DNA from: Synechococcus sp. A15-24
GTDB taxonomy: Bacteria; Cyanobacteriota; Cyanobacteriia; PCC-6307; Cyanobiaceae
DNA: 32,000 bases
Assembly (NCBI RefSeq): GCF_014280195.1
Contig: NZ_CP047960.1
Span: 420,001-452,000 of the forward strand
Reading direction: 5' to 3'
Shown here: positions 671-23,571 of the stretch, piece by piece
How positions within the stretch are numbered: the stretch's first letter is position 1
Layout of the letters: every line of letters starts with the position of its first letter
Program-made: the position numbers and the translations under genes
Notes under the pieces: model-generated
What the model saw: the letters and a program-made list of their open reading frames with translations, nothing else
What the model was told of the DNA's origin: nothing
The model's database searches: none

Positions 671-730
671 CTGCAATTATGTGCGGCCCATATCTCATGA
701 CCCGAATGGCCTACGTCCAGAATTTATGGG

Positions 731-3795: not shown

Positions 3796-3816
3796 TTTGT
3801 ATGTTGCAAATTAACA

Positions 3817-4980: not shown

Positions 4981-4995
4981 TAAAGCTTCAACTGC

Positions 4996-5031
4996 AAACC
5001 CATAGCCCCGTCAGCAATGGCGGGTTTTTTA
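4996..5031 (+). terminator. Rho-independent terminator candidate after the metzincin gene
   Basis: Imperfect stem AAACCC..GCC / GGC GGGTTT followed by TTTTTTA (5025-5031). It starts 16 nt after the stop codon. Confidence 0.5.
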
Positions 5032-7603: not shown

Positions 7604-8442
7604 AGGTCCCAGTAATCGCTGGGTTTTCCCATATATGCCAGCATTTGTAGGCTGTCAGGGCGGATACGTCGCAGAACTCGGCGTTTCAATCCGTCGTTCC
7701 ACTGTGGTTTCTCAACGTGACCTCGCCCTTTGTCTCCGGCCTGATTTTCTTTGGGCAGTTGACCATTGGCGTCTAAAAGTCTCTTAACCCTTGGTTTGAC
7801 GCCAAGAAAGTGCATCATGCTGCGTAGTGAACGCCGGGGTGAGCTGAGGAGATCTTCGAAGGTCATGCAATAAATCTGGTCATCTGGGTAAAAACGACGG
7901 AAGGCAGATAGGCGCTGGTAGTACATCGAGCAGCCAACAATCAGCTTGCGCAGGTGGCGGTCACGCATCAGTTCGCTGAAGTCAGCGCAGTCTGGATTGC
8001 GACCTCGGTAGTGACGCCATTGGGACACAATTCGGTCTAGCGGGTGACGAACGATATAAATCAATTTGAGATCTGGCAGGTATCGATGCATTAACTCTGG
8101 TGTTCGACTAAAGGAGTGCAGGCCACTGGCGTACATCGTGCTGCCTTCTCCCCTCAACGGAAAATCTTTGCCCTTTCTGAATCTCGAGGCATACCAGTCC
8201 CAGCCCTTTTTGTAATAACGACCGAAGAATTTGGGCTCCTTGGGTTTGCTGATGAAGACGTCTGGATGTTGCGGCAGGATTGTTGTGAGGGTTGTTGTGG
8301 CAGATTTGGCGGCGCCAATAACGATGAAATTGGGGAGAGAATCATGATGCTGAGCTACGATTTCGGCATGCTTGCCGCGAAGTCCAATGCGGATCAATTT
8401 TATGGAACTCGAGTTGGATGTCATATCAAATGTGTTGATCAA
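7600..8442 (-). CDS. Sulfotransferase, Sulfotransfer_1/3-like (P-loop-type PAPS binding)
   Basis: FIVIGAAKSATTTL (5'-PSB G..KsGTT-like) and IVRHPLDRIVSQW (3'-PB R.P.DR..S). The start is ambiguous: TTG at 8442 or ATG at 8424. Confidence 0.8.
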   Translation of the reverse strand: MINTFDMTSNSSSIKLIRIGLRGKHAEIVAQHHDSLPNFIVIGAAKSATTTLTTILPQHPDVFISKPKEPKFFGRYYKKGWDWYASRFRKGKDFPLRGEGSTMYASGLHSFSRTPELMHRYLPDLKLIYIVRHPLDRIVSQWRHYRGRNPDCADFSELMRDRHLRKLIVGCSMYYQRLSAFRRFYPDDQIYCMTFEDLLSSPRRSLRSMMHFLGVKPRVKRLLDANGQLPKENQAGDKGRGHVEKPQWNDGLKRRVLRRIRPDSLQMLAYMGKPSDYWDL

Positions 8443-9215
8443 GCATTTTGTTTTGTGCGTTGACGCTTCTTGGCCTTGACCACGCCTCGTTGGAGAGGGG
8501 GTAGCTTGTTAAGTTGATGGCCGTCGAGCAGGGCGTCGACGCTGTAGTCACCATAGAAGTGCTTGAAATCCTCTTCATAGCGTTCGATGACTCTGTCAAT
8601 CAGCGCTGCGGAATGGAACAGCACGCGAATATCACTACGCCCTTCGCGACGGACATTTTTCTGTGGGATGGCCCCAAGCGTGGGGAGACCCTCCAATTTC
8701 ATCCGGCGACGTAAGCGTCTCCAATGATCATTCATATGTTCCATGCGCCCGACAAATTTGGGGACGAGTTTGTTCGCACAAAGCAACATCTCGGCCTGCG
8801 GACGAACATGGTTGTCCATCAGCTCAGGATCGGACTTGCAGACAATTTCGATGAAATGATCAAAGGCCATGCCGTGGTGGAGGCCCATTGTTTTCATGGG
8901 CATCGGCACATCCTCAATTTCCAGAATCTTGTTGTTGTAGGCGGCTACTAGCCGGTCGAACGGATTACGAACAAAGCTGAAACTGAAGTGGCTAGAACGC
9001 AGTCGTCTGGCCTGCTGAGGAGTGACCAACTGGGTCTCACCATGGGTGTTTTCACGCCAGAATCGATCAGCAGTCGTTTTGATCCCTCCATCGGGACGAT
9101 TGGACAACAGTTTGCACAGCGTGGTTTTGATCGAGGAGTTGGCCACTTTCGGGACGCGCCCGTACAACAGCGGAATGTCCCGAAACAGGATGAAGTGCCG
9201 AGGCGACTTGCTCAT
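8439..9215 (-). CDS. Sulfotransferase, Sulfotransfer_2-like, paralog of 6899-7603
   Basis: LLYGRVPKVANSSIK and SFVRNPFDRLVAAYNNK. It shares an identical 20-nt string AATCTTGTTGTTGTAGGCGG with the paralog. It has a basic C-terminal tail KAKKRQRTKQNA and an ATGA overlap with the neuB stop. Confidence 0.8.
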   Translation of the reverse strand: MSKSPRHFILFRDIPLLYGRVPKVANSSIKTTLCKLLSNRPDGGIKTTADRFWRENTHGETQLVTPQQARRLRSSHFSFSFVRNPFDRLVAAYNNKILEIEDVPMPMKTMGLHHGMAFDHFIEIVCKSDPELMDNHVRPQAEMLLCANKLVPKFVGRMEHMNDHWRRLRRRMKLEGLPTLGAIPQKNVRREGRSDIRVLFHSAALIDRVIERYEEDFKHFYGDYSVDALLDGHQLNKLPPLQRGVVKAKKRQRTKQNA

Positions 9216-11476: not shown

Positions 11477-11514
11477 AGTTCGCCCCGCAGGTGCCTAAGC
11501 AGAACCAGTGGACA

Positions 11515-12828
11515 CTACCCCACGTCCCTGTAAGTCAGGCTCAGCAGCAGGCGCCTGATGATCCGGTTCCGTTGCTGCACAGCCCGTGAGCGGCGAGCCA
11601 CATTGCGATGGGTCGGTCGCATCAGGCTCCCGAGTTGCAACAGGCTCTGTGCTTCCTGCCAATTCTTTTGACGGATGGCTCGCTCAGCGTCGCGTCGCAG
11701 CTGCGTGAAGCTGAGATTGGCGTTGGAAAGATATCCCGATGTTGTGCTGAGGCGTTCAGGTGGATCGGCACGCAGCTGGCGTAGGGCCTCGATCAGCTCC
11801 ACAGGGTCGAGATTTGTGCCGTAGCCCATCCAAGCCAGCCAGTCGGCGTCTGGCGAGGGCAGTGAATGATCAAGAGCATCAAGGTCCTCGACCTCATCAA
11901 GGCAGCGCCAAACGCCCGATCCCGCGAAGACATGGCTGCCGTTGGCAGGATTGATGCCGAAGTCGGCTATCACCAGGGGCCTGCAGCCCATATCCAATGC
12001 GTCGAAAAAGGCGGTGGATGAAATGGTGGCCATCAGCCTGGCCTGACGCAGCAGGTCGGGCAAAGCCCGGTAGTCGAATTTCAGGTTGTCGGGGGGGTGG
12101 CCAAGGGTCTGCAGCAATGTTGTGCTGATGTGGTCTTTGATGCTGTGGAAGGTTGTCTCTCCAGGGGCAATACGCGGTTTGATCAACACCTCCCAGTCCG
12201 GGGAACGCCGGGCAAGGTCCGCCAAAATCCGCACCATCTCAGCGCGGTCAATGGGGTTTGAAGGCATCACCACCTGTTCCGCGAACACCAGTTGCTTGCG
12301 CCTCTGTTGTTGGTCGAGGAGCTGATCATCTGAGATCTCCTGGCGGTGCAATCCGGTGAGAACCGTGCGCTGACCGGCAAACGGACTTCCCTCCAGCATT
12401 CGGTCCAGCGCCTCACGATCCCGTGGGCCACTGAGGCAGACGAGGTCGTAACCCAGCCGCCAGCTCATGCCTTCCATGAACTTCTCCAGCACTACGCCGT
12501 TGAAGCCGCAGAACAACAGCGGTCGCTCACGACTGGGCAGCAATCCCAACGCCAGTCGAAAATCACTGACCTTGCTGCCGGTGAGGTACACACCAATGGC
12601 ATTGAACTGGCGCAGCTCGGGGTGAGTCAGCAATTGCCCCATGTCCAGCCGCCAAAGGTCACCAAGGGCAGCAGCCCGCTGCAGAATCGAATCGGGTGTT
12701 CCCTCACGCGGAATGGCGTTGATGGTGACCTGAATGTTGAGGTCCGACGGGAAGCGACATAGCGCTTCACAGGCCAACAATTGGCTGTCGCTGTCGCCGA
12801 TCAGCAACAGTTTGAACGGACCATTCAT
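11515..12828 (-). CDS. Paralog 1 of 3: putative CMP-sugar-dependent GT-B glycosyltransferase (polysialyltransferase/KpsS-like motif layout)
   Basis: VLIKPRIAPGE, then about 55 aa, then MATISSTAFFDALDMG. This mirrors hhKxHP ... SS/T..h.EA in KpsS, KpsC and NeuS. Clear paralogy to 12825-13880 and 13877-15208. It has a basic amphipathic C-terminal tail. Existence of the CDS is solid; the function is inferred. Confidence 0.6.
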   Translation of the reverse strand: MNGPFKLLLIGDSDSQLLACEALCRFPSDLNIQVTINAIPREGTPDSILQRAAALGDLWRLDMGQLLTHPELRQFNAIGVYLTGSKVSDFRLALGLLPSRERPLLFCGFNGVVLEKFMEGMSWRLGYDLVCLSGPRDREALDRMLEGSPFAGQRTVLTGLHRQEISDDQLLDQQQRRKQLVFAEQVVMPSNPIDRAEMVRILADLARRSPDWEVLIKPRIAPGETTFHSIKDHISTTLLQTLGHPPDNLKFDYRALPDLLRQARLMATISSTAFFDALDMGCRPLVIADFGINPANGSHVFAGSGVWRCLDEVEDLDALDHSLPSPDADWLAWMGYGTNLDPVELIEALRQLRADPPERLSTTSGYLSNANLSFTQLRRDAERAIRQKNWQEAQSLLQLGSLMRPTHRNVARRSRAVQQRNRIIRRLLLSLTYRDVG

Positions 12829-13880
12829 GGCAGCAACTCCACCAGGCGGCGGATCAGGCGCGCGGCGCCGTCATGCACCCCCCAGCCCATGGACTGCAGC
12901 CAGGACGTATTGACGGGTGGCAAACCCAGCAGTTGATCCATGTGGTCGATCGACTGCAGGCGATGCATCAGTCCGCTGCCGAAGAACGTCGTTGTGTCTT
13001 GATCGGAGTGGATGCCGTAATCGCCGATGAGCAGGGTTGGTCGGCCCCAGGCCATAGCAGTCAGGCTCCAGGGGGAGCTGACGCTGAGACAGGCGCTGCA
13101 GCTGGCCAGCTGGCTCAGGAGCTGACCAGGTGCACCAAACACCAGGTTGTCGGGGAAGGTCCAGTCGCTGGATTTGAACTTGGAGATCCAGGGCTGACCT
13201 TTCTCCCAGGCGTGGTCGCGTTGGATCACAATCGACCACTCCGGGGACGTTTCAGCCCAGCGGATCAATTGCTGCAGCAACTGTGCCTTGGCACCGATCT
13301 GGGTGGGGATGCCCTCCTGAACCAGAGCGAGCAGGGTATGGGGCGGTTTTGCGGTTCCGCCTTTGAGAGCTCCGAGGGGAGGACGTTCCGGAGAGAACCA
13401 ATGCCCGATCGCCACGATTGATGGACTGGCCACGCTCTCGGGCCAGAACTGTGTGATCGCCTCAAGCTCCCGTCGCTGACGATCCCCTGGCACCACCAAG
13501 AGATCACAGCATTGGCGGTCGCTCAGCTGATGAACCAGGCTGTCACCAAGGGAGGCCTGGAGAGGACCGCTGAACACCACAGCTGGCTGCACACCACGCT
13601 GCCGGGCGAGGTGTCGGTGAGCATGGGTAAAGAGCTCAAGGTGGTCGCTGCGACGGATGAACAACCCAACGGCGCTGGCGGACTCCAACAGCTCATGGCC
13701 CAGCAGATCCATCAGGGTCAGTGGGATTTGCGGGGTGACGGAAGGCAGAGGGCTGTCTCGGCTTGTGGACAGCGCCGGTCCAATGGTCAGGCAGGACTGA
13801 CCGCGCTGCTCAAGCTGCTGTTGCAGCAGCTGGCAGGCCATAGCGCTGCGGTCGTCATCACTGACCAGAAGGATTGTCAT
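12825..13880 (-). CDS. Paralog 2 of 3: divergent member (IVIQRDHAWEKG instead of KP[HR])
   Basis: SPEWSIVIQRDH...CLSVSSPWSLTAMAWGRPTLLIGDYG aligns with paralogs 1 and 3. I prefer ATG 13880 (MTILLVSDDD), which gives an ATGA overlap with the upstream stop, over GTG 13895. Confidence 0.55.
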   Translation of the reverse strand: MTILLVSDDDRSAMACQLLQQQLEQRGQSCLTIGPALSTSRDSPLPSVTPQIPLTLMDLLGHELLESASAVGLFIRRSDHLELFTHAHRHLARQRGVQPAVVFSGPLQASLGDSLVHQLSDRQCCDLLVVPGDRQRRELEAITQFWPESVASPSIVAIGHWFSPERPPLGALKGGTAKPPHTLLALVQEGIPTQIGAKAQLLQQLIRWAETSPEWSIVIQRDHAWEKGQPWISKFKSSDWTFPDNLVFGAPGQLLSQLASCSACLSVSSPWSLTAMAWGRPTLLIGDYGIHSDQDTTTFFGSGLMHRLQSIDHMDQLLGLPPVNTSWLQSMGWGVHDGAARLIRRLVELLP

Positions 13881-15208
13881 CGCTCCCTTAGCCACCGAGA
13901 CAACCAGCCAAAGCCCACCAGCCCATCGCGGAGTCGGCGCAGAAGGGTGCGGGTTTTGTGCCGTTTTTGCTGGCTGGAGCGCGCACCACCGCTGCTGAGC
14001 ATGCGGCGGCCGCCGTGACGGATGGCGTAGGTCTGCCAGCTGCGGCTGCCCCAGCTGGCCGGTCCAAGACCATCGCTTTGCAACGGGGGCCGCTCGCCAT
14101 GCAGTTGTTTCAACAGGGCTGTCAGAAAGATCTCCTGCCCTTGGGGTTGGTGGCCGTGGCGTTGCAACCAGTCGACCTTGTGAACGGGTGTGAACGGGTC
14201 ACGACAGATTGCCGCGAAGTCCGCAACGGCCCCTGATTCCGCAAAAAAGTGATTGCCCAGGGTCTCGGTGACACCGAGATCGCCCACAATTCGAGTGCTC
14301 ACGCCCATGGCCATGGCCTCAAGGGCTGCCGTTGACGAGACGGTGATGGCGCAGCCGCATTGCCGCAGCAGCCGCGTGGCTGGCTTGAAACTGAGTTGCA
14401 AATTGGGGACCGTGTCACTCATTCGCTCGATCACACCAGCCATTTCGCCGTGGCGACGGTGCAGGGTGCTCTCGATGCTGGAGGTTCGCGGTTTGAAGAT
14501 CACCGGATGATTGGGCCAGGCTTCCGCCAGCTCCTTGAGTTGCTTGCAGATGTAGCGCCGTTGCAGCGGATGGACCGGTATCGAGGGCTGCTCGAAGAAC
14601 ACAATCGATGGGTTGTCGGGCAAGGGTTGCTCGGATCTGGCGTTCCAGAGCAACGGCAAGCCCGTTACTACGGCGTTATCGCTGGTTAGCCCCAGGGCCT
14701 CACGGCCGCGCCGGTACTGGGCGAAATCCTGATCACTGTTGAGGCAGAGCAGATCAGCCCCGGAGCGATCCAGCATGCCCTCCAGGGCAAAACGGAAGAG
14801 AATGCCCGGATAGGCGCTGACAAGAACCGGGCGGTCCGTGCGGCGATGCCACTCTTTCGACAGCATCAGTAGCGCATCACGGCCGCGGAGACCGTCCAAG
14901 CCCAGAATCAGCACATCGGTATCACCGGCCATGGCGGCGGTGAGGCTGCGGAAGTCACCCCATGCTCCTTTTTTAATTGTGGTGCGGCGGTCCGTGCGGC
15001 TGATCTCCAGGCGTTGGCGGCGAGAGAGGGCCCGGTTGGACACCTGCAGCAGATGCAAGGTTGTCTCAGCTCCCTCACTCCGGCAGGCGGCGAGCAAGGT
15101 CATGGCCACCTTGCCGAAGGAGTCGAAGCAGGCGACGGCGGCCACCTTTCTGCCGGAGAGGCGCTTATCGGCAGCGGGCGCCATCGTCGGGCTCCGGGAA
15201 TCTGGCAA
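13877..15208 (-). CDS. Paralog 3 of 3: putative CMP-sugar-dependent GT-B glycosyltransferase
   Basis: VIFKPRTSSIE ... AITVSSTAALEAMAMGVSTRIVGDLG, and VLVSAYPGILFRFALEGM matching LLFCGFNGVVLEKFMEGM of paralog 1. The C-terminal tail is basic (KRHKTRTLLRRLRDGLVGFGWLSRWLRER). The start is TTG 15208 or ATG 15184. Confidence 0.6.
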   Translation of the reverse strand: MPDSRSPTMAPAADKRLSGRKVAAVACFDSFGKVAMTLLAACRSEGAETTLHLLQVSNRALSRRQRLEISRTDRRTTIKKGAWGDFRSLTAAMAGDTDVLILGLDGLRGRDALLMLSKEWHRRTDRPVLVSAYPGILFRFALEGMLDRSGADLLCLNSDQDFAQYRRGREALGLTSDNAVVTGLPLLWNARSEQPLPDNPSIVFFEQPSIPVHPLQRRYICKQLKELAEAWPNHPVIFKPRTSSIESTLHRRHGEMAGVIERMSDTVPNLQLSFKPATRLLRQCGCAITVSSTAALEAMAMGVSTRIVGDLGVTETLGNHFFAESGAVADFAAICRDPFTPVHKVDWLQRHGHQPQGQEIFLTALLKQLHGERPPLQSDGLGPASWGSRSWQTYAIRHGGRRMLSSGGARSSQQKRHKTRTLLRRLRDGLVGFGWLSRWLRER

Positions 15209-15210
15209 AA

Positions 15211-15891
15211 CTAACTGGCAGTGAGAGCCGCAAGGCTGCGGCAGAGGGCCAGATCGGCCGGTGTATCGATCTCCGGCCCCGAGTCCTCGATCACCACCGG
15301 TTGCCAGGGGGCACAGAAGCGGCTGCCTTCGGCGCGGAAACAGGCGGTGCTCATGGCGTAAATCGCACCGGTTTCCAGAAAGGCTGGCTCCAGGTCCTGC
15401 CGCCGTTGACGGGGTTGTTGGGGGTCGTGGTTGATCCCGCGGCCGTCACTGCGCCAGAGAAAGCCATGCCATGGCGCGACGGCGAAGGCACTGTTGATCT
15501 CTGGGTTCTCAAGTGCTGTCAGCACCTGGTCGATCTGCGCACCGCTGGTGAAAGGAGACGTGCACTGCAGGAAGACCAGCAGGGGAGGCAGTGGCCCTTG
15601 CTGTTCCAAGGTGTCCAGGGCATGCAGCAGGGCTGACTCGGAGCTGGCCGTGTCACCGGCGATGGCGACCGGACGACACACCACCTCAGCACCATGGACC
15701 TGGGCTTCCATGGCGATGGCGTCATCGTCGGTGCTGACCACCACCCGATCCACCCCGCGGCTAGCGAATGCAGCCTGCACACTGCGAGCCACCAGGGAGA
15801 GCCCGCCCACCTTCTGCAGATTCTTGCCGGGAATCCCTTTGGAGCCGCCCCGCGCTGGAATCACAGCCAGGGCTCCAGCGGTCGCGCTCAT
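15211..15891 (-). CDS. neuA: Acylneuraminate cytidylyltransferase (CMP-nonulosonate synthetase)
   Basis: LAVIPARGGSKGIPGKNL is the NeuA-type CTP_transf_3 N-terminal motif, not the KdsB-type IPAR..S.RLPGKPL. Size is 226 aa. Confidence 0.85.
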   Translation of the reverse strand: MSATAGALAVIPARGGSKGIPGKNLQKVGGLSLVARSVQAAFASRGVDRVVVSTDDDAIAMEAQVHGAEVVCRPVAIAGDTASSESALLHALDTLEQQGPLPPLLVFLQCTSPFTSGAQIDQVLTALENPEINSAFAVAPWHGFLWRSDGRGINHDPQQPRQRRQDLEPAFLETGAIYAMSTACFRAEGSRFCAPWQPVVIEDSGPEIDTPADLALCRSLAALTAS

Positions 15892-15925: not shown

Positions 15926-17911
15926 ATGATTCAGCGCTTCGGGGTGCCGGAGACCGGTCTACTGGCCCATCGCACGGTGCCGGCGCTGCTGGCTCCGGCG
16001 CAGTTGCTGCCGGGCCGGCGGCGGGATGTGGAGGTGTTGCTGGCCTGGGGGCGACGCCCCAGTGCCCGGCGGGTCGAGCGCTTGGGGCGGCGCTGGCAGC
16101 TACCGGTGTGGCATTTGGAGGATGGTCTGCTGCGCTCCTTGGCCAAGGGCCGCCAGCATCCGCCGCTGGCGCTGTTGGTTGATGACCTGGGGGTTCATTT
16201 CGATGCCACTCAGCCCAGCCGGATGGAGCAGCGGATTCAGCAACCGCTGACCCCTGCACAACACAACCGGGCCCGTGAACTTCAGCAGCGGTGGTGTGCA
16301 CAGCGGCTGAGCAAGCTCAACCCCGCCCGGGAATCACCGGCTCCAGCCGAGCCTTTTGTGCTGGTTGTGGACCAGTCCGCCGGCGACTGCTCCATCGGCC
16401 TCGGGCAAGCCGGGCCGGAGAGCTTCCGGCGCATGTTGCAGGAGGCGCTGCGGGATCAGCCGGACTGTCTGGCGGTGGTGAAGGTGCATCCGGATGTGAT
16501 CCGGGGCCGCGCCCGGGGCCATTTCCGCCGGCAGGATCTGCAGCACCCGCGCATCCGCGTTTGCGCTGACGGATTGCACCCTGCCGCCCTGTTGGAGCAG
16601 GCCCAGGCGGTGTATGTGGTGACCTCCCAGATGGGCTTCGAAGCACTGCTGTGGGGGCGAACGGTCCACTGCTTTGGCATGCCCTTCTATGCCGGTTGGG
16701 GGCTGACCCATGATCGTCTGCCGGCTCCGGTCCGTCGGGGGCAGATGGTGCCTTTGGAAGCGCTGGTGCATGCAGTGCTGGTGGCGGGCACCCGTTGCGT
16801 GGATCCCCATCACCATCAGCCCTGCCCGATCGAAACGTTGATGGATGCCATCGGGCTGCAACGCCGCCTGCAGGTGGCGGATCCTCAGCGGGTGGAAGCC
16901 TTCGGGTTTACGCCCTGGAAGCAACGCAGCCTCAAGCGCTTTCTGGCCGGCAGTGAGCTGCGCTTCCGCCTGCCGCGGGCGTGGCCGGGGCGGCGGGCGG
17001 AGGCCGTGGCGGTGTGGGGGCGGCGGGCGCGACCACGCCTGCTGGCCACGGCGCGCCAACGGTCGCTGCCGCTGCTGCAGGTGGAGGACGGCTTCCTGCG
17101 TTCGGTGGGGCTGGGGGCGGATCTGATCGATCCGATCTCCTGGGTGGTGGACCTCCGGGGGATGTATTACGACGCCACGGAGAGCAGCGATCTGGAGCAT
17201 CTTCTGGCCACCGCTGACTGGAGTAAGCCGCAGTTGCAGCGGGCTGAGGCCCTGCGCCAACAGCTGGTGGAGCAGGCGATCACCAAGTACAACCTGTCGG
17301 GAGATGGGTGGCAGCGCCCCAAGGGGGTCCGGCGGGTGGTGTTGGTGGTGGGCCAGGTGGAAAGCGACGCTTCAATCCGCTACGGCGCTCCCGGGATCAC
17401 CACCAACCTGGCTCTGCTGGAGGCTGTTCGGGCCGCTGAACCGGATGCTTTTGTGGTTTACAAGCCCCATCCGGATGTGGTGGCGGGCCTCTGCCGCTCT
17501 GGGGAAGGGGAAGAGCGGGCTGGGCAGGTCTGCGATTACCTGTTGGTTGATGGTTCGATCCATGCCCTGTTTGAGCAGGTGGATGCCCTGCATGTGCTCA
17601 CCTCACTGGCGGGATTTGAGGCGCTGCTGCGGGGGGTGGAGGTGCACTGCTGGGGACTGCCCTTTTATTCGGGTTGGGATCTGACGCATGACCGGTTGTC
17701 GTCTCCCCGGCGGGGGCGGCCGCTGCCATTGGCGGCTTTGGTGCATGCCGCCTTGATTGATTACCCCCGCTACGTCAGCCGTCACAGCGGTTGGTTCATC
17801 ACTCCAGAGCAAGCCATTGAGGAGCTGGTGGCCTGGCGGGATGCACCTGCAGCTCCACGCACCCTGGTGCAGGCCCTGTTCCGCCACTGGGGGCGACTGC
17901 GCCGCCGCTGA
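15926..17911 (+). CDS. kpsC: KpsC-like capsule beta-Kdo transferase (tandem Capsule_synth domains)
   Basis: Colinear with E. coli KpsC as I recall it. Shared blocks are MIQRFG.. start, LAWGRRPSA, WHLEDGLLRS, VVKVHPDV, VYVVTSQMGFEALLWG..CFGMPFYAGWGLT. The second repeat has LQVEDGFLRSVGLGADL, YYDATESSDLE, KYNL, VGQVESDASI, VVYKPHPDV, VLTSLAGFEALLRG..CWGLPFYSGWDLT. The track ORF start at 15431 is an antisense-overlap artefact; ATG 15926 is in frame. Confidence 0.9.
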   Translation: MIQRFGVPETGLLAHRTVPALLAPAQLLPGRRRDVEVLLAWGRRPSARRVERLGRRWQLPVWHLEDGLLRSLAKGRQHPPLALLVDDLGVHFDATQPSRMEQRIQQPLTPAQHNRARELQQRWCAQRLSKLNPARESPAPAEPFVLVVDQSAGDCSIGLGQAGPESFRRMLQEALRDQPDCLAVVKVHPDVIRGRARGHFRRQDLQHPRIRVCADGLHPAALLEQAQAVYVVTSQMGFEALLWGRTVHCFGMPFYAGWGLTHDRLPAPVRRGQMVPLEALVHAVLVAGTRCVDPHHHQPCPIETLMDAIGLQRRLQVADPQRVEAFGFTPWKQRSLKRFLAGSELRFRLPRAWPGRRAEAVAVWGRRARPRLLATARQRSLPLLQVEDGFLRSVGLGADLIDPISWVVDLRGMYYDATESSDLEHLLATADWSKPQLQRAEALRQQLVEQAITKYNLSGDGWQRPKGVRRVVLVVGQVESDASIRYGAPGITTNLALLEAVRAAEPDAFVVYKPHPDVVAGLCRSGEGEERAGQVCDYLLVDGSIHALFEQVDALHVLTSLAGFEALLRGVEVHCWGLPFYSGWDLTHDRLSSPRRGRPLPLAALVHAALIDYPRYVSRHSGWFITPEQAIEELVAWRDAPAAPRTLVQALFRHWGRLRRR

Positions 17912-17931: not shown

Positions 17932-19959
17932 GTGCTGGACGGCGATTTGGGCAGGGGACGGGCGCCGGCGCTGGTGCAGGTGCGCATCGAAGGACCGGTT
18001 CTGCTGCTGATGGGCCCGATCGGGCTGTTCTTTGCCCGCTTCAGCCGATACCTGCAGGGATGTGGCATCCCGGTCACCAAGGTGCGTTTTCCTTTGCGGG
18101 AATTCGGCTTCCCTTCGGACGTGTGTGTGCCGTTTCAAAAGCCGATGGAGGCCTGGCGGCCCTTCCTGCGTCAGCTGCTGCAGGAGCGCGGCATCCGACA
18201 CATCTTCATGTATGGGGACTTCATCATTCCCCACCGGATTGCCATCGAGGAGGCTCGCGACCTGGGGGTGGAAGCCTGGGTGTTCGAACTCGGATACCTG
18301 CGCCCCAACTACGTGACCCTGGAGCGGGATCGGGTCAACGCCCGCTCCAACCTCAACCAACCCGCGGCCTTCTACCGCAACCTGCCACCGGTGGATCAGC
18401 TGCCGCCGGAGATTGTGCTGGATCCGGGCTGGCGCTGGCGCAAGGCCTGGAAGGCTCCCACGTTCATTCAACACGCCTTCACCCGCTACCCGATCATTGA
18501 GGGGGAGCACAAACTGCAGCCCAATCCGGGCTTCCTCTGGTGCCAGCTGCGCGGCAGCTGGCGTTACTGGCTGTACCGCTGGCAGGAGCGCAACCTGAAG
18601 CGCCGGCTGCTGGAGCACCTGTCCTTCTTCCTGGCGGTGCTGCAGGTGTCCAGTGATTCCCAGATCCAGCTGGGGTCGCCCTACCGCGGCATGCACGACT
18701 TCATCGAAGACGTGATCCGCTCCTTTGCGGACCATGCCCACAGCTCCGACCATTTGGCTTTCAAGCACCACCCGCGGGACCGGGGCTACAACCATTACGG
18801 CAGCCTGATTGGTGTGCTGGCGCGCCGCTACGGCGTCTGCGGGCGGGTTCACTACTTCCACGACGGTGCCCTCAGCCGCTACCTGCGCACCTGCCGCGGT
18901 GTGATCACGGTGAACAGCACGGTGGGCCTCCAGGCCCTGTTCCATGCGGTGCCCACCAAAACCATGGGCAATACCTTTTACAACCTGGAGGGGCTGACGG
19001 ATCAGAAGCCCCTGGATGGGTTTTGGCGGGACCCCCAGCCCAGTGACCGAGCGCTGTTCTGGCGGTTTTACCACCACCTGGTGATGACCACCCAAGTGAA
19101 CGGCAATTTCGACGGGGACTTCCCCTTCCGGATCACCTTCCCGATCGGCCTTGAGGCTCGCCAGCTCGAACCGCAGCCGCAGTTGCCGCCGCTGCGTCCA
19201 CGGCCACGGATAAACCCCCTGCTGCTGCCGGTGCGGGTGCTGGCTCGCCTGGGTTGGGCAGCCCTGGGGTTTGTCTTGTACGGCCTGCAGCTGCCAGCGG
19301 TGCTGCTCCGCCGATCGGACTGGGCGGCTCAGCTGATGACCTGGGCGTCTGCTGTGGCGTTGCGGGCGCTTGGGGTGCAGGTGGTGGTTGATGACAGCCA
19401 GCCCAGTGAGCCAGCTGTGGTGCCCCTGGTGCATATCTTCAACCACCGCAGCCCCTGTGATGGCCTGGTGATTCAGGGGGTGTTGCGCCTGCCGGGCATG
19501 ACCACGGCGCAGCTGCATCTGAAGTGGGTGCTGCCTGGCTATGCGGCTGCGGCCCGCAATGCCGGCTCGGCCGTTCTCGATCATCGCCAGCCCAGTTCGC
19601 GGCTGGAGGGAATGATGCGGGCCTCAGCGTTGTTGCGCGATCACGGCCAGATCATGCTGGCCCCCAACGGCTCCCTGGTGACGCCGATCGAACAGCGGGT
19701 CTCCCCCAGCGCCTGGATGCTGGCTCAGCATTACAACGGTTCGGTTGTGCCCTGGCTGTTCCGCTACGACGGGCTGGAGGGGGCCGTGGGAGCCCGGTAC
19801 AGGCCTTGGGCGCTGCTGCTCAGCCGGTTGACGGCTCCACTTGGAACGATTCACTGTCGCCGCGGGCGCTCCCAGGATCTGGTTCTGCCTAAGGATCCTC
19901 GGGACCGGGAGGGGTTTAGCCGGGCTGTGCAGGCGTACTACCAGCAAGTACAAGACTGA
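17932..19959 (+). CDS. kpsS: KpsS-like Kdo transferase fused to a C-terminal PlsC/LPLAT-type acyltransferase domain
   Basis: KpsS blocks are LLLMGPIGLFF, FELGYLRPNYVT, FFLAVLQVSSDSQI, LAFKHHPRDRG, VITVNSTVGLQALF, MTTQVNGNF. These are followed by a Pro-rich linker and a hydrophobic segment. Next come the HX4D box FNHRSPCD (His codon 19444-19446, Asp codon 19459-19461) and APNGS (19660-19674) in the position of the FPEGT block. GTG start. Confidence 0.85.
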   Translation: MLDGDLGRGRAPALVQVRIEGPVLLLMGPIGLFFARFSRYLQGCGIPVTKVRFPLREFGFPSDVCVPFQKPMEAWRPFLRQLLQERGIRHIFMYGDFIIPHRIAIEEARDLGVEAWVFELGYLRPNYVTLERDRVNARSNLNQPAAFYRNLPPVDQLPPEIVLDPGWRWRKAWKAPTFIQHAFTRYPIIEGEHKLQPNPGFLWCQLRGSWRYWLYRWQERNLKRRLLEHLSFFLAVLQVSSDSQIQLGSPYRGMHDFIEDVIRSFADHAHSSDHLAFKHHPRDRGYNHYGSLIGVLARRYGVCGRVHYFHDGALSRYLRTCRGVITVNSTVGLQALFHAVPTKTMGNTFYNLEGLTDQKPLDGFWRDPQPSDRALFWRFYHHLVMTTQVNGNFDGDFPFRITFPIGLEARQLEPQPQLPPLRPRPRINPLLLPVRVLARLGWAALGFVLYGLQLPAVLLRRSDWAAQLMTWASAVALRALGVQVVVDDSQPSEPAVVPLVHIFNHRSPCDGLVIQGVLRLPGMTTAQLHLKWVLPGYAAAARNAGSAVLDHRQPSSRLEGMMRASALLRDHGQIMLAPNGSLVTPIEQRVSPSAWMLAQHYNGSVVPWLFRYDGLEGAVGARYRPWALLLSRLTAPLGTIHCRRGRSQDLVLPKDPRDREGFSRAVQAYYQQVQD

Positions 19960-21181
19960 TGTTGTGACCGCCGAAGCCGAAGGCGTTTTTGAGCAGCAGG
20001 CGTTGGCCTTGATCAGAAGACAGCTCAACAGGACCCTGGTTGGCCACCGCCAGCTCCACCTCAGGATCCAGGGGATCGGCATTTAGGCTGCCGGGTAACA
20101 CTCCGTGACGCAGGGCCTGCAGGGCCAGGATGGTTTCTACCGCTCCGGCGCCCCCCAGCAGATGGCCGAGTTGGCCTTTGGGGGCGCAGACCGGCAGATG
20201 ATCGGCGGCACTGCCGAGGCTGCGCCGCAATGCTCTGGCCTCCGCCAGGTCGCCGAGGCTGGTGCCGGTGGCATGGGCCTGAACGCCGCAGAGGTCCGAG
20301 GCGCTCACATCCGCCCGGCGCAGGGCATCATCAATGGCACGGCTGGCCTGTAGCCCCTGGGGTTCGGGGGAGACGATGTGATGAGCATCGCTGCTGCTGC
20401 CGCTGGCCAGCAACCAACCCAGATCCGCTCCTGCTGGCGTGTCCCGCTGCCGCATCAGGGCCAGGACGCCGGCGCCTTCGGAGAGCACAAAGCCATCTCT
20501 ATTGAGCCCATAGGGACGGGAGGCCTGATCGGGGGCGTCGTTGCGGCCGGAGAGGGCGCGCATGGCAGCAAAGCCCACAAGCCCCAGTCGGTTCACTGGT
20601 GCTTCGCTGCCTCCGGCCAGCACCAGATCGGCGCGGTCGTCGTTGAGCAGCATCTGGCCCAGCATCAACGCTTCGGCGCCCGAGGCGCAGGCGGACACCG
20701 GGGTGTGGGCACCGCCGAGCAGACCGAACTCGATGGCGACCTGACCAGCGGCAGCATCGGGGATCAGCATCGGCACGGTGAGGGGGTTGACCCGGCTCGG
20801 TCCCCCTGCGCTGAGTTGCGTGTGCTGCTCGTGCATCGTGGCGAGGCCGCCGATGCCGGTGCCGATCACCACAGCGATCCGACTTGGATCGAGCCCTTGT
20901 GTGATGGACCCGGCCATGGCCCAGGCCTGCCGCGCGGCCACCAGGGCAAGCTGGGCACAGCGATCGGAGCGGCGGCGGAGCAGGGGCGGCAGGCTGTCGA
21001 GGGCCCTCGTTGGGACGCAACCGGCCAGGCGCACGGGCAGATCCTCGGTCCAGGCAGCCTGGAGGGTCTGGATGCCGCTGTGACCAGCGATCACCGACGT
21101 CCAGGTGCTGTCGGCATCGGCACCAAGGGGGTTGAGGGAACCCCAACCCACCACTGCGGTGGGCTCAGCTCGGGAAGCCAT
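19916..21181 (-). CDS. Beta-ketoacyl-ACP synthase (FabF/FabB-like elongating KAS, Cys-His-His)
   Basis: Active-site contexts are PVSACASGAEAL, VQAHATGTSLGD, KGQLGHLLGGAG, and the C-terminal NAFGFGGHN. The 3' end overlaps the convergent kpsS-fusion gene by 44 nt. Confidence 0.85.
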   Translation of the reverse strand: MASRAEPTAVVGWGSLNPLGADADSTWTSVIAGHSGIQTLQAAWTEDLPVRLAGCVPTRALDSLPPLLRRRSDRCAQLALVAARQAWAMAGSITQGLDPSRIAVVIGTGIGGLATMHEQHTQLSAGGPSRVNPLTVPMLIPDAAAGQVAIEFGLLGGAHTPVSACASGAEALMLGQMLLNDDRADLVLAGGSEAPVNRLGLVGFAAMRALSGRNDAPDQASRPYGLNRDGFVLSEGAGVLALMRQRDTPAGADLGWLLASGSSSDAHHIVSPEPQGLQASRAIDDALRRADVSASDLCGVQAHATGTSLGDLAEARALRRSLGSAADHLPVCAPKGQLGHLLGGAGAVETILALQALRHGVLPGSLNADPLDPEVELAVANQGPVELSSDQGQRLLLKNAFGFGGHNISLVLAGSTPAQPG

Positions 21182-21446
21182 CGGCCGGGCTGGGGCTCAA
21201 GGACTCCAGGTGCTGCTGAATGTCCGCAACGGTGCGGAACCGGAGTAGTTCCTCCTCTTTAATCCGGATTCCGAAGTTGGTGTCCGCCTCGATCAGGATT
21301 TCGTAGAACCCAAGGGAATCAATTCCCACGTCCTCCATCAGCCGGGCGTTAGGGGTGATCACGGCTGGGTCGGCGCCGGAGATGCGATGCAGGATCTCGA
21401 TCAGCCGTCCCTGCAGCTCTTGCTTGTCAGGGCAGCTCTCTCCCAA
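21165..21446 (-). CDS. Acyl carrier protein (dedicated, locus-encoded)
   Basis: The phosphopantetheine attachment context is DVGIDSLGFYEI. Size is about 93 aa. TTG start, with no upstream ATG. It overlaps the KAS start by 17 nt. Confidence 0.7.
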   Translation of the reverse strand: MGESCPDKQELQGRLIEILHRISGADPAVITPNARLMEDVGIDSLGFYEILIEADTNFGIRIKEEELLRFRTVADIQQHLESLSPSPADGFPS

Positions 21447-21491
21447 CGCACAACCTCTTATTGAGTAGCCAAAGTACCAGTGATGGTGGGA

Positions 21492-22403
21492 TTACACGTC
21501 GCCTCGGTACCAGCTGAAGCGTTGGTAGACGGGCTGATGGGGGAGGTCGATGAAGAGTGCCAGTCGTTCTTGAGGGAGTTTCCTCAGATCTGCAGCCATC
21601 AGGATTTCAGTGATCTGGTTGAAGTCCAGGGCCAGGGACAGATCACAGACTTCCGCCTGCATCAAGTTGACGTACTGACGCAGCAGCACCGGTAATCGGA
21701 AATTGTCGGAGAGGGTCTGGCGGATCTCCTGTTCCAGGGCCTGGATGTGGCCGCTGGGATGGGGGGTGTCATCAGCGCGAATGCCTGGGACGGGATGGCG
21801 TGGGGCCGGTAAGGGGGTGTCAAGGCGCCGATAGGGGGGACGCAGCAGGGCGCTGAGGAAAGCGCTGTTCACGGCGTCGCTGTGGGCGAAGTGGTTGTAG
21901 GAGACCAACCCGTGCAGCAACTCGTAACCGCTGCGGGCAGCGATCAGCAGACCGCCGCGGAACAGGGCCATCAGCGAGTGGGGCTGGCGTTGGAAGCGTT
22001 CCGCCAGGGCGACCCTGCCGATTTCGAGGTGGTTGGTGCGGCTGGCCAGGTCCGCCTTGATGCCGGGATAGACGTGTTCGAGATAAGAGCCGCTGCTGCC
22101 GGGTAAGGGGGTGGCGCCGACGGGGATGAACTGCAGGCGGGCGGAGCCGGCGAGATCGCCGCTGCTGCGTTCCACCAGCAGCAGATGGTCGTAATCGGGA
22201 TCGCGACCATCCAGGTCCCGCTCGTCTCCCGACCCGGACAACTGCTTGCGGTACGTTGATTCGCGAAGCTGTCCAACGGCATCGGCCACAGCGTAGAAGG
22301 CGCTGCCTGCGATCAGGTGCAGATCGAGGTCGTCAATCGTGAGTAAGCGTGTTTCCGTCGCCGAGGCCACGTCGGAAGGGATGGACGGACCAGACAGCGT
22401 CAT
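21492..22403 (-). CDS. GNAT-fold N-acyltransferase of the OlsB / hemolysin-like (Acetyltransf_5) type
   Basis: The blocks DGRDPDYDHLLLVE, LEIGRVALAE and LPVLLRQYVNLMQAEV resemble the OlsB-family blocks D.FD..C.HLLV, ELSRF.V and PPLLKGYLRLGA (from memory). It is first in an operon with ACP and KAS. Confidence 0.65.
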   Translation of the reverse strand: MTLSGPSIPSDVASATETRLLTIDDLDLHLIAGSAFYAVADAVGQLRESTYRKQLSGSGDERDLDGRDPDYDHLLLVERSSGDLAGSARLQFIPVGATPLPGSSGSYLEHVYPGIKADLASRTNHLEIGRVALAERFQRQPHSLMALFRGGLLIAARSGYELLHGLVSYNHFAHSDAVNSAFLSALLRPPYRRLDTPLPAPRHPVPGIRADDTPHPSGHIQALEQEIRQTLSDNFRLPVLLRQYVNLMQAEVCDLSLALDFNQITEILMAADLRKLPQERLALFIDLPHQPVYQRFSWYRGDV

Positions 22404-22458: not shown

Positions 22459-23571
22459 TTGTCGTTTCCCACTGCCTTGATCCCTTTCTCTTCGCGCTCT
22501 GCTGCTGTGGTCTGCACCCGGCTGATCGCCGGTCTGGCGGCCACTGCGACGTGCTTGGTGGTCGGCCCGCTTGCAGCTGTTGCAGATCCAGTGACCTCTG
22601 CCAGAAGCTCACCGAGCAGCGGCCAAGAGGTGTTTCGCTACCGACTGGGACCTGGCGACAGTCTGGCTATGTCGGTATTCAAGATGAGCGGTTACCAGGC
22701 AAATGTGAAGGTGCTGAGCGATGGCACCATCAACCTTCCGCGCATCGGCACCATTGAGGTCTGGGGACTGACTTTAGAAGAAGCGCGTCAGCGCATCAGC
22801 GCGGCCTATGAGGTCTTTCTGCGTCGGCCGATCGTCTACCTCGATCTGGTGACCGCCCGTCCGGTGAAGGTCACAGTGACCGGTGAAGTGGAACGTCCAG
22901 GGGTGTTCAGCCTGCCGACCCAAGCGGAGGGGGGCTGGCCGACGCTGGTGGATGTGGTGCAGAAAGCTGGTGGTGTGTCCGCCAGTGGTGATCTGTCCCG
23001 TATTGAAGTGCTGCGTCCTGCCGTGCGCCGCGGTGGCTCGATGCGTCGTTATCAATTCGATTACCTCACGGTGCTTCGCGAGGGTGGGCATGCCCCGAAC
23101 CCCCTGATTTACGACGGCGACAGCATTCGCTTGTACAAAAACGAAGAAGTCGATAACGCTGACCTGATCACGACGGCGGCCTCCAACTTCGCTCCCGACA
23201 CGATCCGCGTGAACGTGATCGGGGAAGTGGCTAAGCCAGGCATCCAGCAGGTGCCATCCAATGCGCCGTTGTCCCAGGCGATCTTTGCGTCGGGCGGCAT
23301 CACCCGTCGCGGCAGCATCAGCACAGTGGAATTGGTGCGTATGGATGGCGAGGGTGAGCCGACGGTCAAAGTGATGAGCTTTGCCCCCAGCGCCGTGCTG
23401 AGCAGCCCGACTAACCCACCGCTCCGTCAAGGAGATGTGATTGTGGTGAACCGCTCAGCTCTCGCGAGGGTGACCGATGGCCTGACCGATGCTTTTTCAC
23501 CGCTCACGCCGATCGTCAATGCCGCCTCGATTTTCCGGATCCTTGGCTTGCCCTCAGTGATTGGCAACTGA
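22459..23571 (+). CDS. Polysaccharide export protein (Wza/KpsD-like: Poly_export + SLBB domains)
   Basis: N-terminal signal-like segment (LIAGLAATATCLVVGPLAAVA). The Poly_export motif is YRLGPGDSLAMSVF...LSDGTINLPRIGTIEVWGLT. SLBB-like repeats are VTVTGEVERPGVF and VNVIGEVAKPGIQ. The start is TTG 22459 or GTG 22507. Confidence 0.8.
   Translation: MSFPTALIPFSSRSAAVVCTRLIAGLAATATCLVVGPLAAVADPVTSARSSPSSGQEVFRYRLGPGDSLAMSVFKMSGYQANVKVLSDGTINLPRIGTIEVWGLTLEEARQRISAAYEVFLRRPIVYLDLVTARPVKVTVTGEVERPGVFSLPTQAEGGWPTLVDVVQKAGGVSASGDLSRIEVLRPAVRRGGSMRRYQFDYLTVLREGGHAPNPLIYDGDSIRLYKNEEVDNADLITTAASNFAPDTIRVNVIGEVAKPGIQQVPSNAPLSQAIFASGGITRRGSISTVELVRMDGEGEPTVKVMSFAPSAVLSSPTNPPLRQGDVIVVNRSALARVTDGLTDAFSPLTPIVNAASIFRILGLPSVIGN

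Follow-up and report, generated by a model that had tools for sequence, protein, structure and literature searches.

The kps-type capsule locus of Synechococcus sp. [quoted passage not shown] While the Synechococcus "Kps cluster" already catalogues these genes (Doré 2020, 2023), with the KAS labelled 'fabF2' (Doré 2023), no functional reading of them as lipid-primer genes was found in the literature searched. An initial annotation of the window (the whole stretch of 32,000 nucleotides that was analysed) had proposed that an OlsB-like enzyme, a PlsC-like domain fused to KpsS, and a private ACP and KAS form an aminolipid pathway that supplies the acceptor for KpsS and KpsC. The analysis reported here partly supports that interpretation; we put at about one half the probability that the three genes supply acyl chains and carry out N-acylation within a conserved lipid-primer module of a kps-type (group 2/3-like) capsule system.

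Results

Table 1. Features of the capsule locus, with positions in the window
Feature	Position	Strand	Domains and remarks
Cytidylyltransferase (PseF/NeuA/KdsB-like)	15211..15891	-	PF02348
KpsC-like dual-module Capsule_synth protein	15926..17911	+	PF05159 in 4 stretches, E 4.4e-76
KpsS::PlsC fusion, 675 aa	17932..19959	+	one ORF; PF05159 residues 91-393; PF01553 residues 497-585
FabF-like β-ketoacyl-ACP synthase II paralogue (KAS), 421 aa	19916..21181	-	ketoacyl-synt N and C domains
Specialised acyl carrier protein (ACP), 93 aa	21165..21446	-	PF00550; S44 in DSL motif
N-acyltransferase (GNAT), 303 aa	21492..22403	-	PF13444 Acetyltransf_5; aminolipid superfamily by profile searches (OlsB / OlsF C-half / GlsB)
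Wza/KpsD-type outer-membrane polysaccharide export protein	22459..23571	+	Poly_export and SLBB domains; divergent from GNAT gene

All features that the initial annotation had placed between 22403 and 19916 were found there, in the minus-strand order GNAT, ACP, KAS (Table 1) and with domain E-values far beyond chance. GNAT and ACP are separated by 45 nt, the KAS start sits within the 3' end of the ACP gene (17-nt overlap with the ACP stop), and no terminator-like site was found on the minus strand within the block. The ACP and KAS are intact, specialised and translationally coupled paralogues. The ACP matches PF00550 (E 3.2e-10, 40.6 bits) and carries its phosphopantetheine serine within GIDSLGFYEI; NCBIfam AcpP-type models all remained under cut-off (best, 48 vs 84). 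In the KAS, the two ketoacyl-synt domains (E 5.6e-43 and 6.4e-29) hold an intact catalytic triad of C165 (SACASG), H303 (HATGT) and H340 (GHLLG), as well as K335 and an NAFGFGGHN motif; this protein scored 382 bits against TIGR03150, under the cut-off of 494, and its top PDB relatives were T. thermophilus FabF and M. tuberculosis KasA, with Synechocystis FabF behind.

With regard to the flanking genes, the export protein gene upstream of GNAT is kept in nearly all loci that were compared. The KpsC-like protein likely starts at the ATG computed at 15926 and not at the listed ORF start, 15431, which falls within the opposite-strand cytidylyltransferase gene. The cytidylyltransferase, which scored 123 bits against TIGR03584 (PseF) and at most 66 bits against KdsB models, all below cut-offs, is predicted to activate a nonulosonic or ulosonic acid of the locus; it is context, outside the lipid module, and its gene was not found in freshwater loci.

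GNAT matches PF13444 well above the profile cut-off (E 5.3e-10, 40.3 bits vs 22.4), and its blocks DYDHLLLVE, LEIGRVALAE and LPVLLRQYVNLMQAEV, at residues 70, 126 and 237, coincide with conserved columns of the family alignment. Its sole NCBIfam match was the C-terminal N-acyltransferase half of OlsF, covered over the whole domain (NF052615 positions 304-568 of 570, E 1.6e-14), and hhalign aligned it with an OlsF-like protein over 267 columns at 99.3% probability. All seven COG3176/OlsB signature positions (PMC4657338) are present with their spacing kept (R47, Y51, D65, D68, R89, E127 and R130), the closest relatives outside its clade are OlsF-type proteins of ~600 aa, and the AF2 model (pLDDT 87.5) has a GNAT / AHL-synthase / FeeM-like fold. 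Non-lipid GNAT and autoinducer-synthase profiles, which the initial annotation had named as competing assignments, gave no match. The description "OlsB-like" was thus upheld at the level of the aminolipid N-acyltransferase grouping but not at the level of the enzyme name: neither OlsB nor GlsB models of NCBIfam matched at E<0.01, and GNAT stayed far under every curated equivalog cut-off (OlsF, 53 bits vs 620), so that neither the name OlsB nor an ornithine-type head group can be claimed. No head-group biosynthesis gene conserved in the module was found. Its sequence places GNAT, as a divergent enzyme, within the superfamily of aminolipid N-acyltransferases (OlsB / OlsF-C / GlsB), and it is predicted to move an acyl chain from acyl-ACP onto an amine.

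The fusion of a PlsC-like domain to KpsS was confirmed as well (Table 1); the fusion and KAS genes converge, with an overlap of 44 nt at the 3' end of the latter. Its product combines a KpsS β-Kdo-transferase-like domain (residues ~22-393; 277 bits against the KpsS model NF050054, which has an equivalog cut-off of 600), a two-helix hydrophobic segment at the hydropathy peaks (residues ~430-486), and a PlsC-like O-acyltransferase domain that carries NHRSPCD (HX4D) and P-x-G-S motifs. Of 18 diverse loci sampled, 17 encode the fusion as a single ORF (the script could not resolve L101), and HX4D is present in 113/114 PlsC-like domains. The C-terminal part has a PlsC-like fold, N-terminal two-helix motif included, and its only significant match was to the lysophosphatidate acyltransferase PlsC (5KYM); OlsA and OlsF-N models gave no match to this domain. 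OlsA, SalA and PlsC all belong to PF01553 (PMC11631085), and the domain could equally acylate a lysophospholipid.

The exclusive match to PlsC and the lack of specific similarity to OlsA and OlsF-N models are among the observations that would fit an arrangement in which phosphatidylglycerol (PG), the substrate of characterised KpsS enzymes (PMC8760489), remains the KpsS acceptor and the role of the PlsC-like domain is limited to re-acylation or remodelling of (lyso)PG-Kdo; GNAT, with or without ACP and KAS, would then make a separate, capsule-co-regulated N-acyl amino acid or aminolipid that helps with capsule export or retention at the outer membrane, or serves as surfactant or signal, without covalent linkage to the polymer. 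The 4 loci with GNAT and KpsS but no PlsC-like domain also favour this arrangement. It leaves unexplained, however, why GNAT lies beside KpsS and KpsC in every informative locus, and even overlaps the kpsS start in two of them (L081 and L142), and a complementary pair of N- and O-acyltransferases fits a two-step aminolipid pathway (PMC11631085); we thus consider a PG acceptor unlikely.

These counts come from 140 related loci (~12 lineages when grouped at 50% identity, the most distant sharing about 25%), with 96 regarded as informative by virtue of at least 3.5 kb of DNA beyond GNAT. KpsS and KpsC each adjoin GNAT in 96/96, the PlsC-like domain is present in 92, and ACP and KAS are present in 41 and absent from 55; neither the PlsC-like domain nor the ACP/KAS pair is therefore obligatory. 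The anticipated co-occurrence with kpsS/kpsC accordingly held for GNAT and, with four exceptions, for the PlsC-like domain, while ACP and KAS fell outside the invariant core, which consists of GNAT, KpsS::PlsC and KpsC with ACP/KAS as accessories. Metagenomic relatives at 24-33% identity show the same linkage, and the GNAT clade is confined to kps capsule loci, which belong to picocyanobacteria or lie on one of a few metagenomic contigs without assignment. Because the loci are related and all named ones come from picocyanobacteria, this synteny is in part inherited rather than independently selected.

The polymer-specific genes differ entirely between marine and freshwater loci: NeuB, three DUF6716 genes and sulfotransferases accompany the core in the former, and GT1, GT2, KpsM and KpsT take their place in the latter, with the core unchanged. 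GNAT therefore belongs to a conserved lipid/linker module rather than to repeat-unit decoration. N-acyl variants are common among nonulosonic acids, and the marine locus has genes for a NeuB-family synthase and a NeuA/PseF-like cytidylyltransferase, as would be expected if GNAT, ACP and KAS N-acylated (e.g., with 3-hydroxyacyl chains) the amino group of nonulosonic acid repeat units in the marine polymer; this is very improbable given that GNAT is kept in loci without NeuB, cytidylyltransferase, DUF6716 and sulfotransferases, is linked to KpsS::PlsC and KpsC and not to polymer genes, and lacks ACP and KAS partners in more than half of the loci. The equal conservation of the module in freshwater Cyanobium-type genomes also makes marine phosphorus economy, the rationale first offered for such a lipid, insufficient.

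NodF, NodE and NodA represent an ACP, a KAS and an N-acyltransferase, and NeuB or DegT-type aminotransferase genes lie near GNAT in some loci. Both observations would suit an anchor of the Nod factor or Vi antigen style, in which GNAT N-acylates the free amino group of a sugar in the linker or reducing terminus with ACP/KAS-made chains and the PlsC-like domain O-acylates it, which would place the lipid on carbohydrate instead of an amino acid; NodF is a specialised ACP (PMC9386255), and the Vi antigen ends in a diacyl-HexNAc whose synthesis involves a dedicated acyltransferase (PMC8760489). Against this, characterised members of the superfamily acylate amino acids, as judged from reviews (PMC11631085) and from the NCBIfam models matched, compact freshwater loci keep GNAT with no amino-sugar synthesis genes found within 10 kb, and KpsS would still require a lipid acceptor, which makes a sugar-linked anchor unlikely, slightly more so than a PG acceptor.

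Discussion

The invariable presence of GNAT with KpsS and KpsC in marine Synechococcus and freshwater relatives suggests that the capsule tether is a custom-made lipid and not the usual phospholipid. Most likely, in our view, a dedicated lipid is synthesised in two OlsB/OlsA-like steps and then glycosylated by KpsS and KpsC. GNAT would first acylate the amino group of a small acceptor, with acyl-ACP donating a fatty acyl chain that is probably 3-hydroxyacyl; the PlsC-like domain would then add a second chain by O-acylation, following the OlsB-then-OlsA logic; and the KpsS domain, physically joined to the PlsC-like one, would together with the later-acting KpsC build a (Kdo-type) linker on the product, which would replace PG as the KpsS acceptor and may be free of phosphorus. 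In marine and some other lineages, the private ACP and FabF-like KAS would supply GNAT, plausibly through one condensation onto malonyl-ACP and reduction by housekeeping FabG to 3-hydroxyacyl-ACP; NodFE is an ACP and KAS pair that depends on housekeeping fatty acid synthesis (FAS) enzymes. Freshwater relatives without ACP and KAS would draw on the housekeeping acyl-ACP pool. Cyanobacteria contain PG, which counts against a dedicated lipid, and reviews from 2024 and 2026 report no aminolipids from cyanobacteria (PMC12971839, PMC11631085).

Among known systems, OlsB/OlsA, OlsF and GlsB-GlsA, which make ornithine, glutamine and glycine lipids, share with the present locus a PF13444 N-acyltransferase whose signature residues and C-terminal extension are the same, a paired HX4D O-acyltransferase of PF01553 (as in OlsA and SalA), and acyl-ACP as expected donor (PMC11631085). 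The present GNAT differs in scoring far below every equivalog cut-off. Its O-acyltransferase partner is joined to the KpsS glycosyltransferase, being neither fused to the N-acyltransferase nor free-standing, and many loci carry a private ACP and KAS.

The proteins of the rhizobial rkp-1 region resemble fatty acid or polyketide synthases, and a phospholipid has been reported as the rhizobial capsule anchor; we know of no OlsB-like GNAT or KpsS::PlsC fusion in this region. [quoted passage not shown]

Group 2 systems of E. coli and Neisseria, in which KpsS and KpsC place β-Kdo on phosphatidylglycerol, share the KpsS-like protein, the dual-module KpsC-like protein and the OPX exporter (PMC8760489), and KpsM/KpsT come after KpsC in freshwater relatives. 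In classical group 2 loci, genes for an acyltransferase, an ACP and a KAS are missing and bulk membrane phospholipid is used, whereas KpsS::PlsC and an invariable N-acyltransferase are found here. The Vi antigen, finally, is a precedent for an ABC-transporter-type capsule whose lipid terminus comes from a dedicated acyltransferase encoded in the locus, VexE, and not from bulk PG (PMC8760489); the Vi system has this single acyltransferase and no kpsS/kpsC, whereas the picocyanobacterial locus combines kpsSC with GNAT and a PlsC-like domain.

Organization of the locus

The window is DNA of a marine Synechococcus. [quoted passage not shown] The features and the position given in the initial annotation are borne out by domain matches, motifs, and the single fusion ORF (see table). 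The ACP and KAS genes overlap by 17 nt (ACP stop, KAS start), with a gap of 45 nt between GNAT and ACP. KAS and kpsS::plsC are convergent and their 3' ends overlap by 44 nt (19916-19959), so that transcription of either gene must continue into the other. A promoter scan gave no match, and the GNAT-ACP-KAS strand carries no terminator-like site, the sole such site being on the opposite strand. With regard to KpsC, the mechanically listed ORF begins at 15431, within the cytidylyltransferase gene of the other strand; translation more likely starts at the ATG at 15926 (MIQRFGVPE...), which lies at a distance of 35 nt from the start of the divergent cytidylyltransferase gene.

Features of the capsule locus and of selected related loci (L-numbers; loci collected around GNAT relatives)
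Feature	Position	Strand	Description
ParA/CbiA-like ATPase	964-1791
Metalloprotease-like gene	3817-4980
Three sulfotransferases	6899-9215
CBS-NeuB-SAF-AP_endonuc_2 protein	within polymer part, 6899-15208		754 aa
Three DUF6716 proteins	within polymer part, 6899-15208		putative glycosyltransferases
Cytidylyltransferase	15211-15891	-	PseF/NeuA/KdsB-like by profile match; sole cytidylyltransferase of the locus, PseF/NeuA-like
KpsC	15926-17911	+	likely start 15926
KpsS::PlsC fusion	17932-19959	+	one ORF, convergent with KAS; Capsule_synth/KpsS at residues 91-393, PF01553 at residues 497-585
KAS	19916-21181	-	421 aa, both ketosynthase domains
ACP	21165-21446	-	93 aa, PF00550, E 3.2e-10
GNAT	21492-22403	-	303 aa, PF13444 (Acetyltransf_5), E 5.3e-10
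Wza/KpsD-type exporter			in the capsule-like island of the window
Housekeeping genes (purB, glnB, others)			beyond the capsule-like island
L081/L142	L081, 274-5859; L142, 8029-13602		distant GNAT-KpsS pair; GNAT overlaps kpsS start, then KpsC-like gene
L082			GNAT, then KpsS
L083			Poly_export, Capsule_synth, cytidylyltransferase, NeuB, GNAT
L085			PlsC-like domain, then GNAT
L086			GNAT-ACP-KAS
L087/L088 (Synechococcus sp. WH 8007)			GNAT, ACP-like gene, KAS, KpsS, KpsC; KpsM/KpsT nearby
KpsS without PlsC-like domain	L087/L088, 13688-16107; L127		alpha/beta-hydrolase and cytochrome P450 between kpsS and kpsC
GT1-like gene	L053, 8886-9833		~315 aa, between Wza and GNAT

In the polymer part of the island, the combination of sulfotransferases, the NeuB fusion, DUF6716 paralogues, and the NeuA/PseF-like cytidylyltransferase suggests a sulfated nonulosonic-acid polymer. 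One DUF6716 paralogue weakly resembles Capsule_synth (E 0.0025). Positions 1-5000 of the window show a GC content of 44-52%, compared to 60-69% across the rest of the capsule region, and contain the ATPase and metalloprotease-like genes as well as ~2 kb with few long ORFs (1791-3817); this segment may represent a foreign insertion or the island boundary.

PF05159 is present in both KpsS and KpsC, with KpsS scoring 277 bits against NF050054, under the equivalog cut-off of 600. No homologue of KpsM or KpsT was found in the window or in the sequence flanking the marine loci, whereas in freshwater relatives they directly follow KpsC; the KpsM/KpsT of the marine strains are presumably located elsewhere in the genome. 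A second capsule gene cluster, Syn-eCAG_009, has been described (Doré 2023).

Family placement of the N-acyltransferase

The GNAT protein had been annotated as OlsB-like, and a profile check for the Acetyltransf_5/OlsB family came out in favor of this placement at the superfamily level. In a Pfam search the protein matched PF13444 with 40.3 bits (cut-off 22.4), and no other Pfam family, autoinducer-synthase and further GNAT profiles included, matched even at E<=10. Its only NCBIfam match was to the C-terminal N-acyltransferase half of OlsF (NF052615; 53 bits, E 1.6e-14), with model positions 304-568 of 570 aligned to GNAT residues 24-284, including the C-terminal extension beyond the GNAT core. 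A comparison, by hhalign, of the clade profile with one OlsF-like protein gave 99.3% probability over 267 columns (OlsF-like residues 281-550). The more specific part of the annotation did not hold, as the 53 bits miss the OlsF equivalog cut-off of 620 and no OlsB (cut-offs 320-350) or GlsB (cut-off 300) model matched at E<0.01; clade relatives scored 27-63 bits.

Residues R54, F58, D75, D78, R99, E132, and R135 of BPSL1375 are conserved throughout the COG3176/OlsB-like family (PMC4657338). The GNAT protein has equivalents at matching spacing, i.e., R47, Y51 (F to Y), D65, D68, R89, E127, and R130, and six of these seven (all except Y51) are invariant or nearly invariant in our family alignments. 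The sequence blocks quoted in the initial annotation lie at residues 70, 126, and 237.

A first homologue search yielded close Synechococcus sequences only (identity of at least 69%), with Synechococcus sp. UW69 and MU1650 as named homologues; the best genomic locus, from the genome scan described below, is that of strain AG-670-A05. Distant relatives were obtained from an exhaustive representative-library search (1.84 billion representatives), in which a small set of ~300-aa GNAT relatives ranked first, followed by ~600-aa proteins that aligned through their C-terminal halves at 26-33% identity. The four ~600-aa proteins that were checked were all OlsF-like (NF052615, 320-371 bits, with weaker GlsB, GlsA, and OlsB matches). 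A homologue search with P0137, a distant GNAT relative, retrieved only P0137 itself.

An AF2 model (pLDDT 87.5) showed a GNAT fold, with acyl-HSL synthases, the CurA GNAT-L domain, and FeeM as the nearest solved structures. A PDB sequence search gave chance-level matches only (PaaC, E 0.01), and neither PDB sequence nor structure searches found an OlsB-type structure among solved structures; acyl-HSL synthases, CurA, and FeeM are thus simply the nearest available folds. The Pfam and NCBIfam matches, the hhalign result, the signature residues, and the absence of other profiles together identify GNAT, at the level of sequence, as a divergent member of the aminolipid N-acyltransferase superfamily (PF13444/COG3176), which includes OlsB, GluB, GlsB, and the C-terminal half of OlsF, while identity as OlsB, OlsF, or GlsB is not demonstrable from these comparisons; the products of OlsF and GlsB themselves were identified through heterologous expression in E. 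coli and lipidomics.

The PlsC-like domain fused to KpsS

The initial annotation also proposed an OlsA-type partner for this enzyme. The C-terminal domain of the fusion matched PF01553 with 29-31.5 bits (cut-off 23), the upper value being reached when the domain was scored alone. PF01553 is the Pfam family of OlsA, SalA, and PlsC (PMC11631085). The NHRSPCD sequence of the fusion represents the HX4D motif, which (as NHxxxxD) was kept in 113 of the 114 PlsC-like domains that covered it in tblastn alignments across related loci; the P-x-G-[ST] motif of PF01553 is also present, and N504, H505, D510, P578, G580, and S581 were invariant in a 15-sequence alignment that extended down to 43% identity. 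A homologue search with the domain returned 30 matches, mostly fragments and all of the same clade.

A structure model of the C-terminal domain only, built from a shallow alignment and of moderate confidence (pLDDT 72), had a sole significant Foldseek match, Thermotoga maritima PlsC (5KYM; E 9.5e-4, TM 0.55-0.59). The model opens with two long helices (model residues 13-40 and 44-61), which match hydropathy peaks of the fusion protein in position (residues 430-486), and this modelled N-terminus resembles the two-helix membrane motif of PlsC. The domain has a predicted PlsC-type fold but shows no specific similarity to OlsA models, the only NCBIfam match being TIGR00530 at E 0.11. Assignment to the OlsF N-terminal type was rejected (hhalign against an OlsF-like N-terminus, 0.6% probability).

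ACP and KAS

The ACP carries its phosphopantetheine serine, S44, in GIDSLGFYEI (DSL) and scored below every NCBIfam AcpP-type cut-off (best, 48 vs. 84), and is predicted to be an acyl carrier protein other than the housekeeping one. The catalytic triad of KAS is intact, with C165 (SACASG), H303 (HATGT), and H340 (GHLLG); the protein scored 382 bits against TIGR03150 (FabF), under the cut-off of 494, and Thermus FabF and mycobacterial KasA rank ahead of Synechocystis FabF in similarity to it. The gene has been named 'fabF2' (Doré 2023). Both ACP and KAS appear, by their sequences, to be specialized paralogues. No reductase or dehydratase genes are encoded in the locus, and steps past condensation would therefore need housekeeping FAS enzymes, for which NodF/NodE offer an analogy.

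Comparison across related loci

A scan of one genome per species yielded 80 loci, all picocyanobacterial except for three in implausibly labelled MAGs, and a metagenome scan with distant relatives yielded 52 further loci; the remaining loci were added by looking up six distant relatives and one cluster-mate individually. The window proteins were compared to all loci by tblastn, with counts restricted to the 96 loci that extend at least 3.5 kb beyond GNAT. Among these loci, which are phylogenetically related to one another, KpsS and KpsC were each found in 96/96, the PlsC-like domain in 92/96, and ACP plus KAS in 41/96. Co-occurrence with kpsS/kpsC, a check suggested in the initial annotation, is thus invariable for GNAT but partial for ACP and KAS, which are not part of the core. 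The PlsC-like domain and KpsS shared one ORF in 17 of 18 diverse sampled loci, the exception (L101) being left unresolved by our script. The GNATs form ~12 clusters at 50% identity, and GNAT relatives of only 24-33% identity keep the same association (see table); four of the loci (L081, L083, L085, and L125) lie on low-GC contigs.

The freshwater loci lack NeuB, the cytidylyltransferase, DUF6716, and sulfotransferases, and instead carry polymer genes for a GT1-like protein, a GT2, KpsM, KpsT, and a conserved 408-aa protein without a Pfam match, but retain the GNAT, KpsS::PlsC, and KpsC core. Because this core persists beside unrelated polymer genes, GNAT is best placed by gene content in the conserved lipid/linker part of the capsule system rather than in a serotype-specific part, with ACP and KAS as accessory components. 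N-acylation by GNAT of nonulosonic acid repeat units, for which the NeuB-type genes of the window would provide a substrate, is largely excluded by the freshwater loci, and decoration of repeat units was rejected as the main explanation.

Several of the loci show further differences. In L087/L088 and L127, where KpsS lacks the PlsC-like domain, the alpha/beta-hydrolase shows weak lipase/thioesterase matches, and together with the P450, homologues of which also occur in several freshwater loci, it may form an alternative lipid-tailoring set. The L081/L142 pair, on a contig of ~42% GC, has at its flanks, in place of KpsM/KpsT, an MsbA-type half-transporter (ABC_membrane plus ABC_tran) and a MAPEG protein, which hints at a lipid-linked product exported by a lipid-flippase-type ABC exporter. 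The GT1-like gene, which has homologues in 81 loci, occurs in the freshwater clade and L087 and not in marine loci; its product could be a linker-to-polymer transition transferase. Finally, the three MAGs, labelled Bradyrhizobium ivorense (L023), Mesorhizobium carmichaelinearum (L046), and Pseudanabaena sp. (L079), share picocyanobacterial capsule-locus synteny with the window, including in L023 an adjoining purB of 85% identity, and are probably mislabelled or contaminated bins.

Proposed pathway and alternatives

Aminolipids are made in two steps, in which a PF13444 enzyme N-acylates and an HX4D acyltransferase then O-acylates the 3-hydroxy fatty acid (PMC11631085). Both enzyme types are present in the locus, the latter fused to KpsS. 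We hypothesize that GNAT would N-acylate a small amine, probably with a 3-hydroxyacyl chain, that the PlsC-like domain would add a second acyl chain, and that KpsS, followed by KpsC, would build the linker on the resulting lipid; to be glycosylated, this acceptor would have to carry a free hydroxyl. In loci that encode ACP and KAS, a single condensation onto malonyl-ACP*, with subsequent reduction by FabG, could supply GNAT with a 3-hydroxyacyl-ACP* of its own; loci without ACP and KAS would use housekeeping acyl-ACP as donor. None of the conserved genes of the module is a head-group gene, which points to a common metabolite as the head group. While gene identities, motifs, fusion, and linkage are observed by computational analysis, every substrate, the step order, and a product that replaces phosphatidylglycerol (PG) as KpsS acceptor are our inference.

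The initial proposal of an OlsB/OlsA-type amino-lipid pathway that supplies the acceptor for KpsS/KpsC appears partly supported, with family placement and co-occurrence as its strong elements; the locus would represent a kps capsule system that includes its own module for lipid-primer synthesis. Its fullest form, in which picocyanobacterial kps-type capsules are tethered by a purpose-built phosphorus-free N-acyl(oxyacyl) amino lipid made by the OlsB-like enzyme and the KpsS-fused PlsC-like domain, is tentative, and we give it a probability of roughly 0.3. A phosphorus-free lipid fits the proposed mechanism but is compatible with the data rather than supported by them; the module is conserved in freshwater as in marine lineages.

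Characterized KpsS/KpsC enzymes use PG (PMC8760489), as they would here if the PlsC-like domain remodelled lyso-PG and the GNAT product were accessory; we regard this arrangement as less likely than the pathway proposed above. Among ABC-transporter capsules, one exception has been described, the Vi antigen, with a diacyl-HexNAc terminus made with VexE in loci without kpsSC (PMC8760489). Acylation by GNAT of an amino sugar of the terminus, as in the Vi antigen or Nod factor, seems a little more doubtful still.

Relation to known systems

The Synechococcus 'Kps cluster', common to clades III and WPC1, has already been described (PMC7522525), and the published listing of its genes offers no functional interpretation of the first three. 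In ocean waters depleted in N and P, its gene set is abundant among Synechococcus populations, and the strains for which island Syn_GI125 is listed include WH8102, WH8103, A15-24, and BOUM118 (Doré 2023). Two recent aminolipid reviews (PMC12971839, PMC11631085) report neither a capsule link nor cyanobacterial aminolipids, and a full-text literature search found nothing relevant that joins KpsS/KpsC with ACP or OlsB. If the amino-lipid reading is true, it would add a third type to the lipid termini known from capsules (PG-Kdo and the Vi diacyl-HexNAc) and provide the first aminolipid from cyanobacteria, a phylum without any reported so far; it would also give an abundant ocean gene set a concrete, testable function. 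For reconstitution, the fusion protein and the compact freshwater loci are simple starting points.

A specialized ACP for a capsule lipid carrier has a precedent in RkpF of the rhizobial rkp-1 region (PMC9386255, PMC4881576). The Vi antigen system combines a dedicated acyltransferase with the absence of kpsSC, whereas the present locus encodes putative acyltransferases together with kpsSC. In the kpsS/kpsC systems characterized to date the polymer is begun on bulk PG, whereas the present kpsSC locus encodes a putative N-acyltransferase and, fused to KpsS, a putative O-acyltransferase; a kpsSC system equipped in this way would show a custom-built lipid primer and thus broaden the model of capsule initiation.
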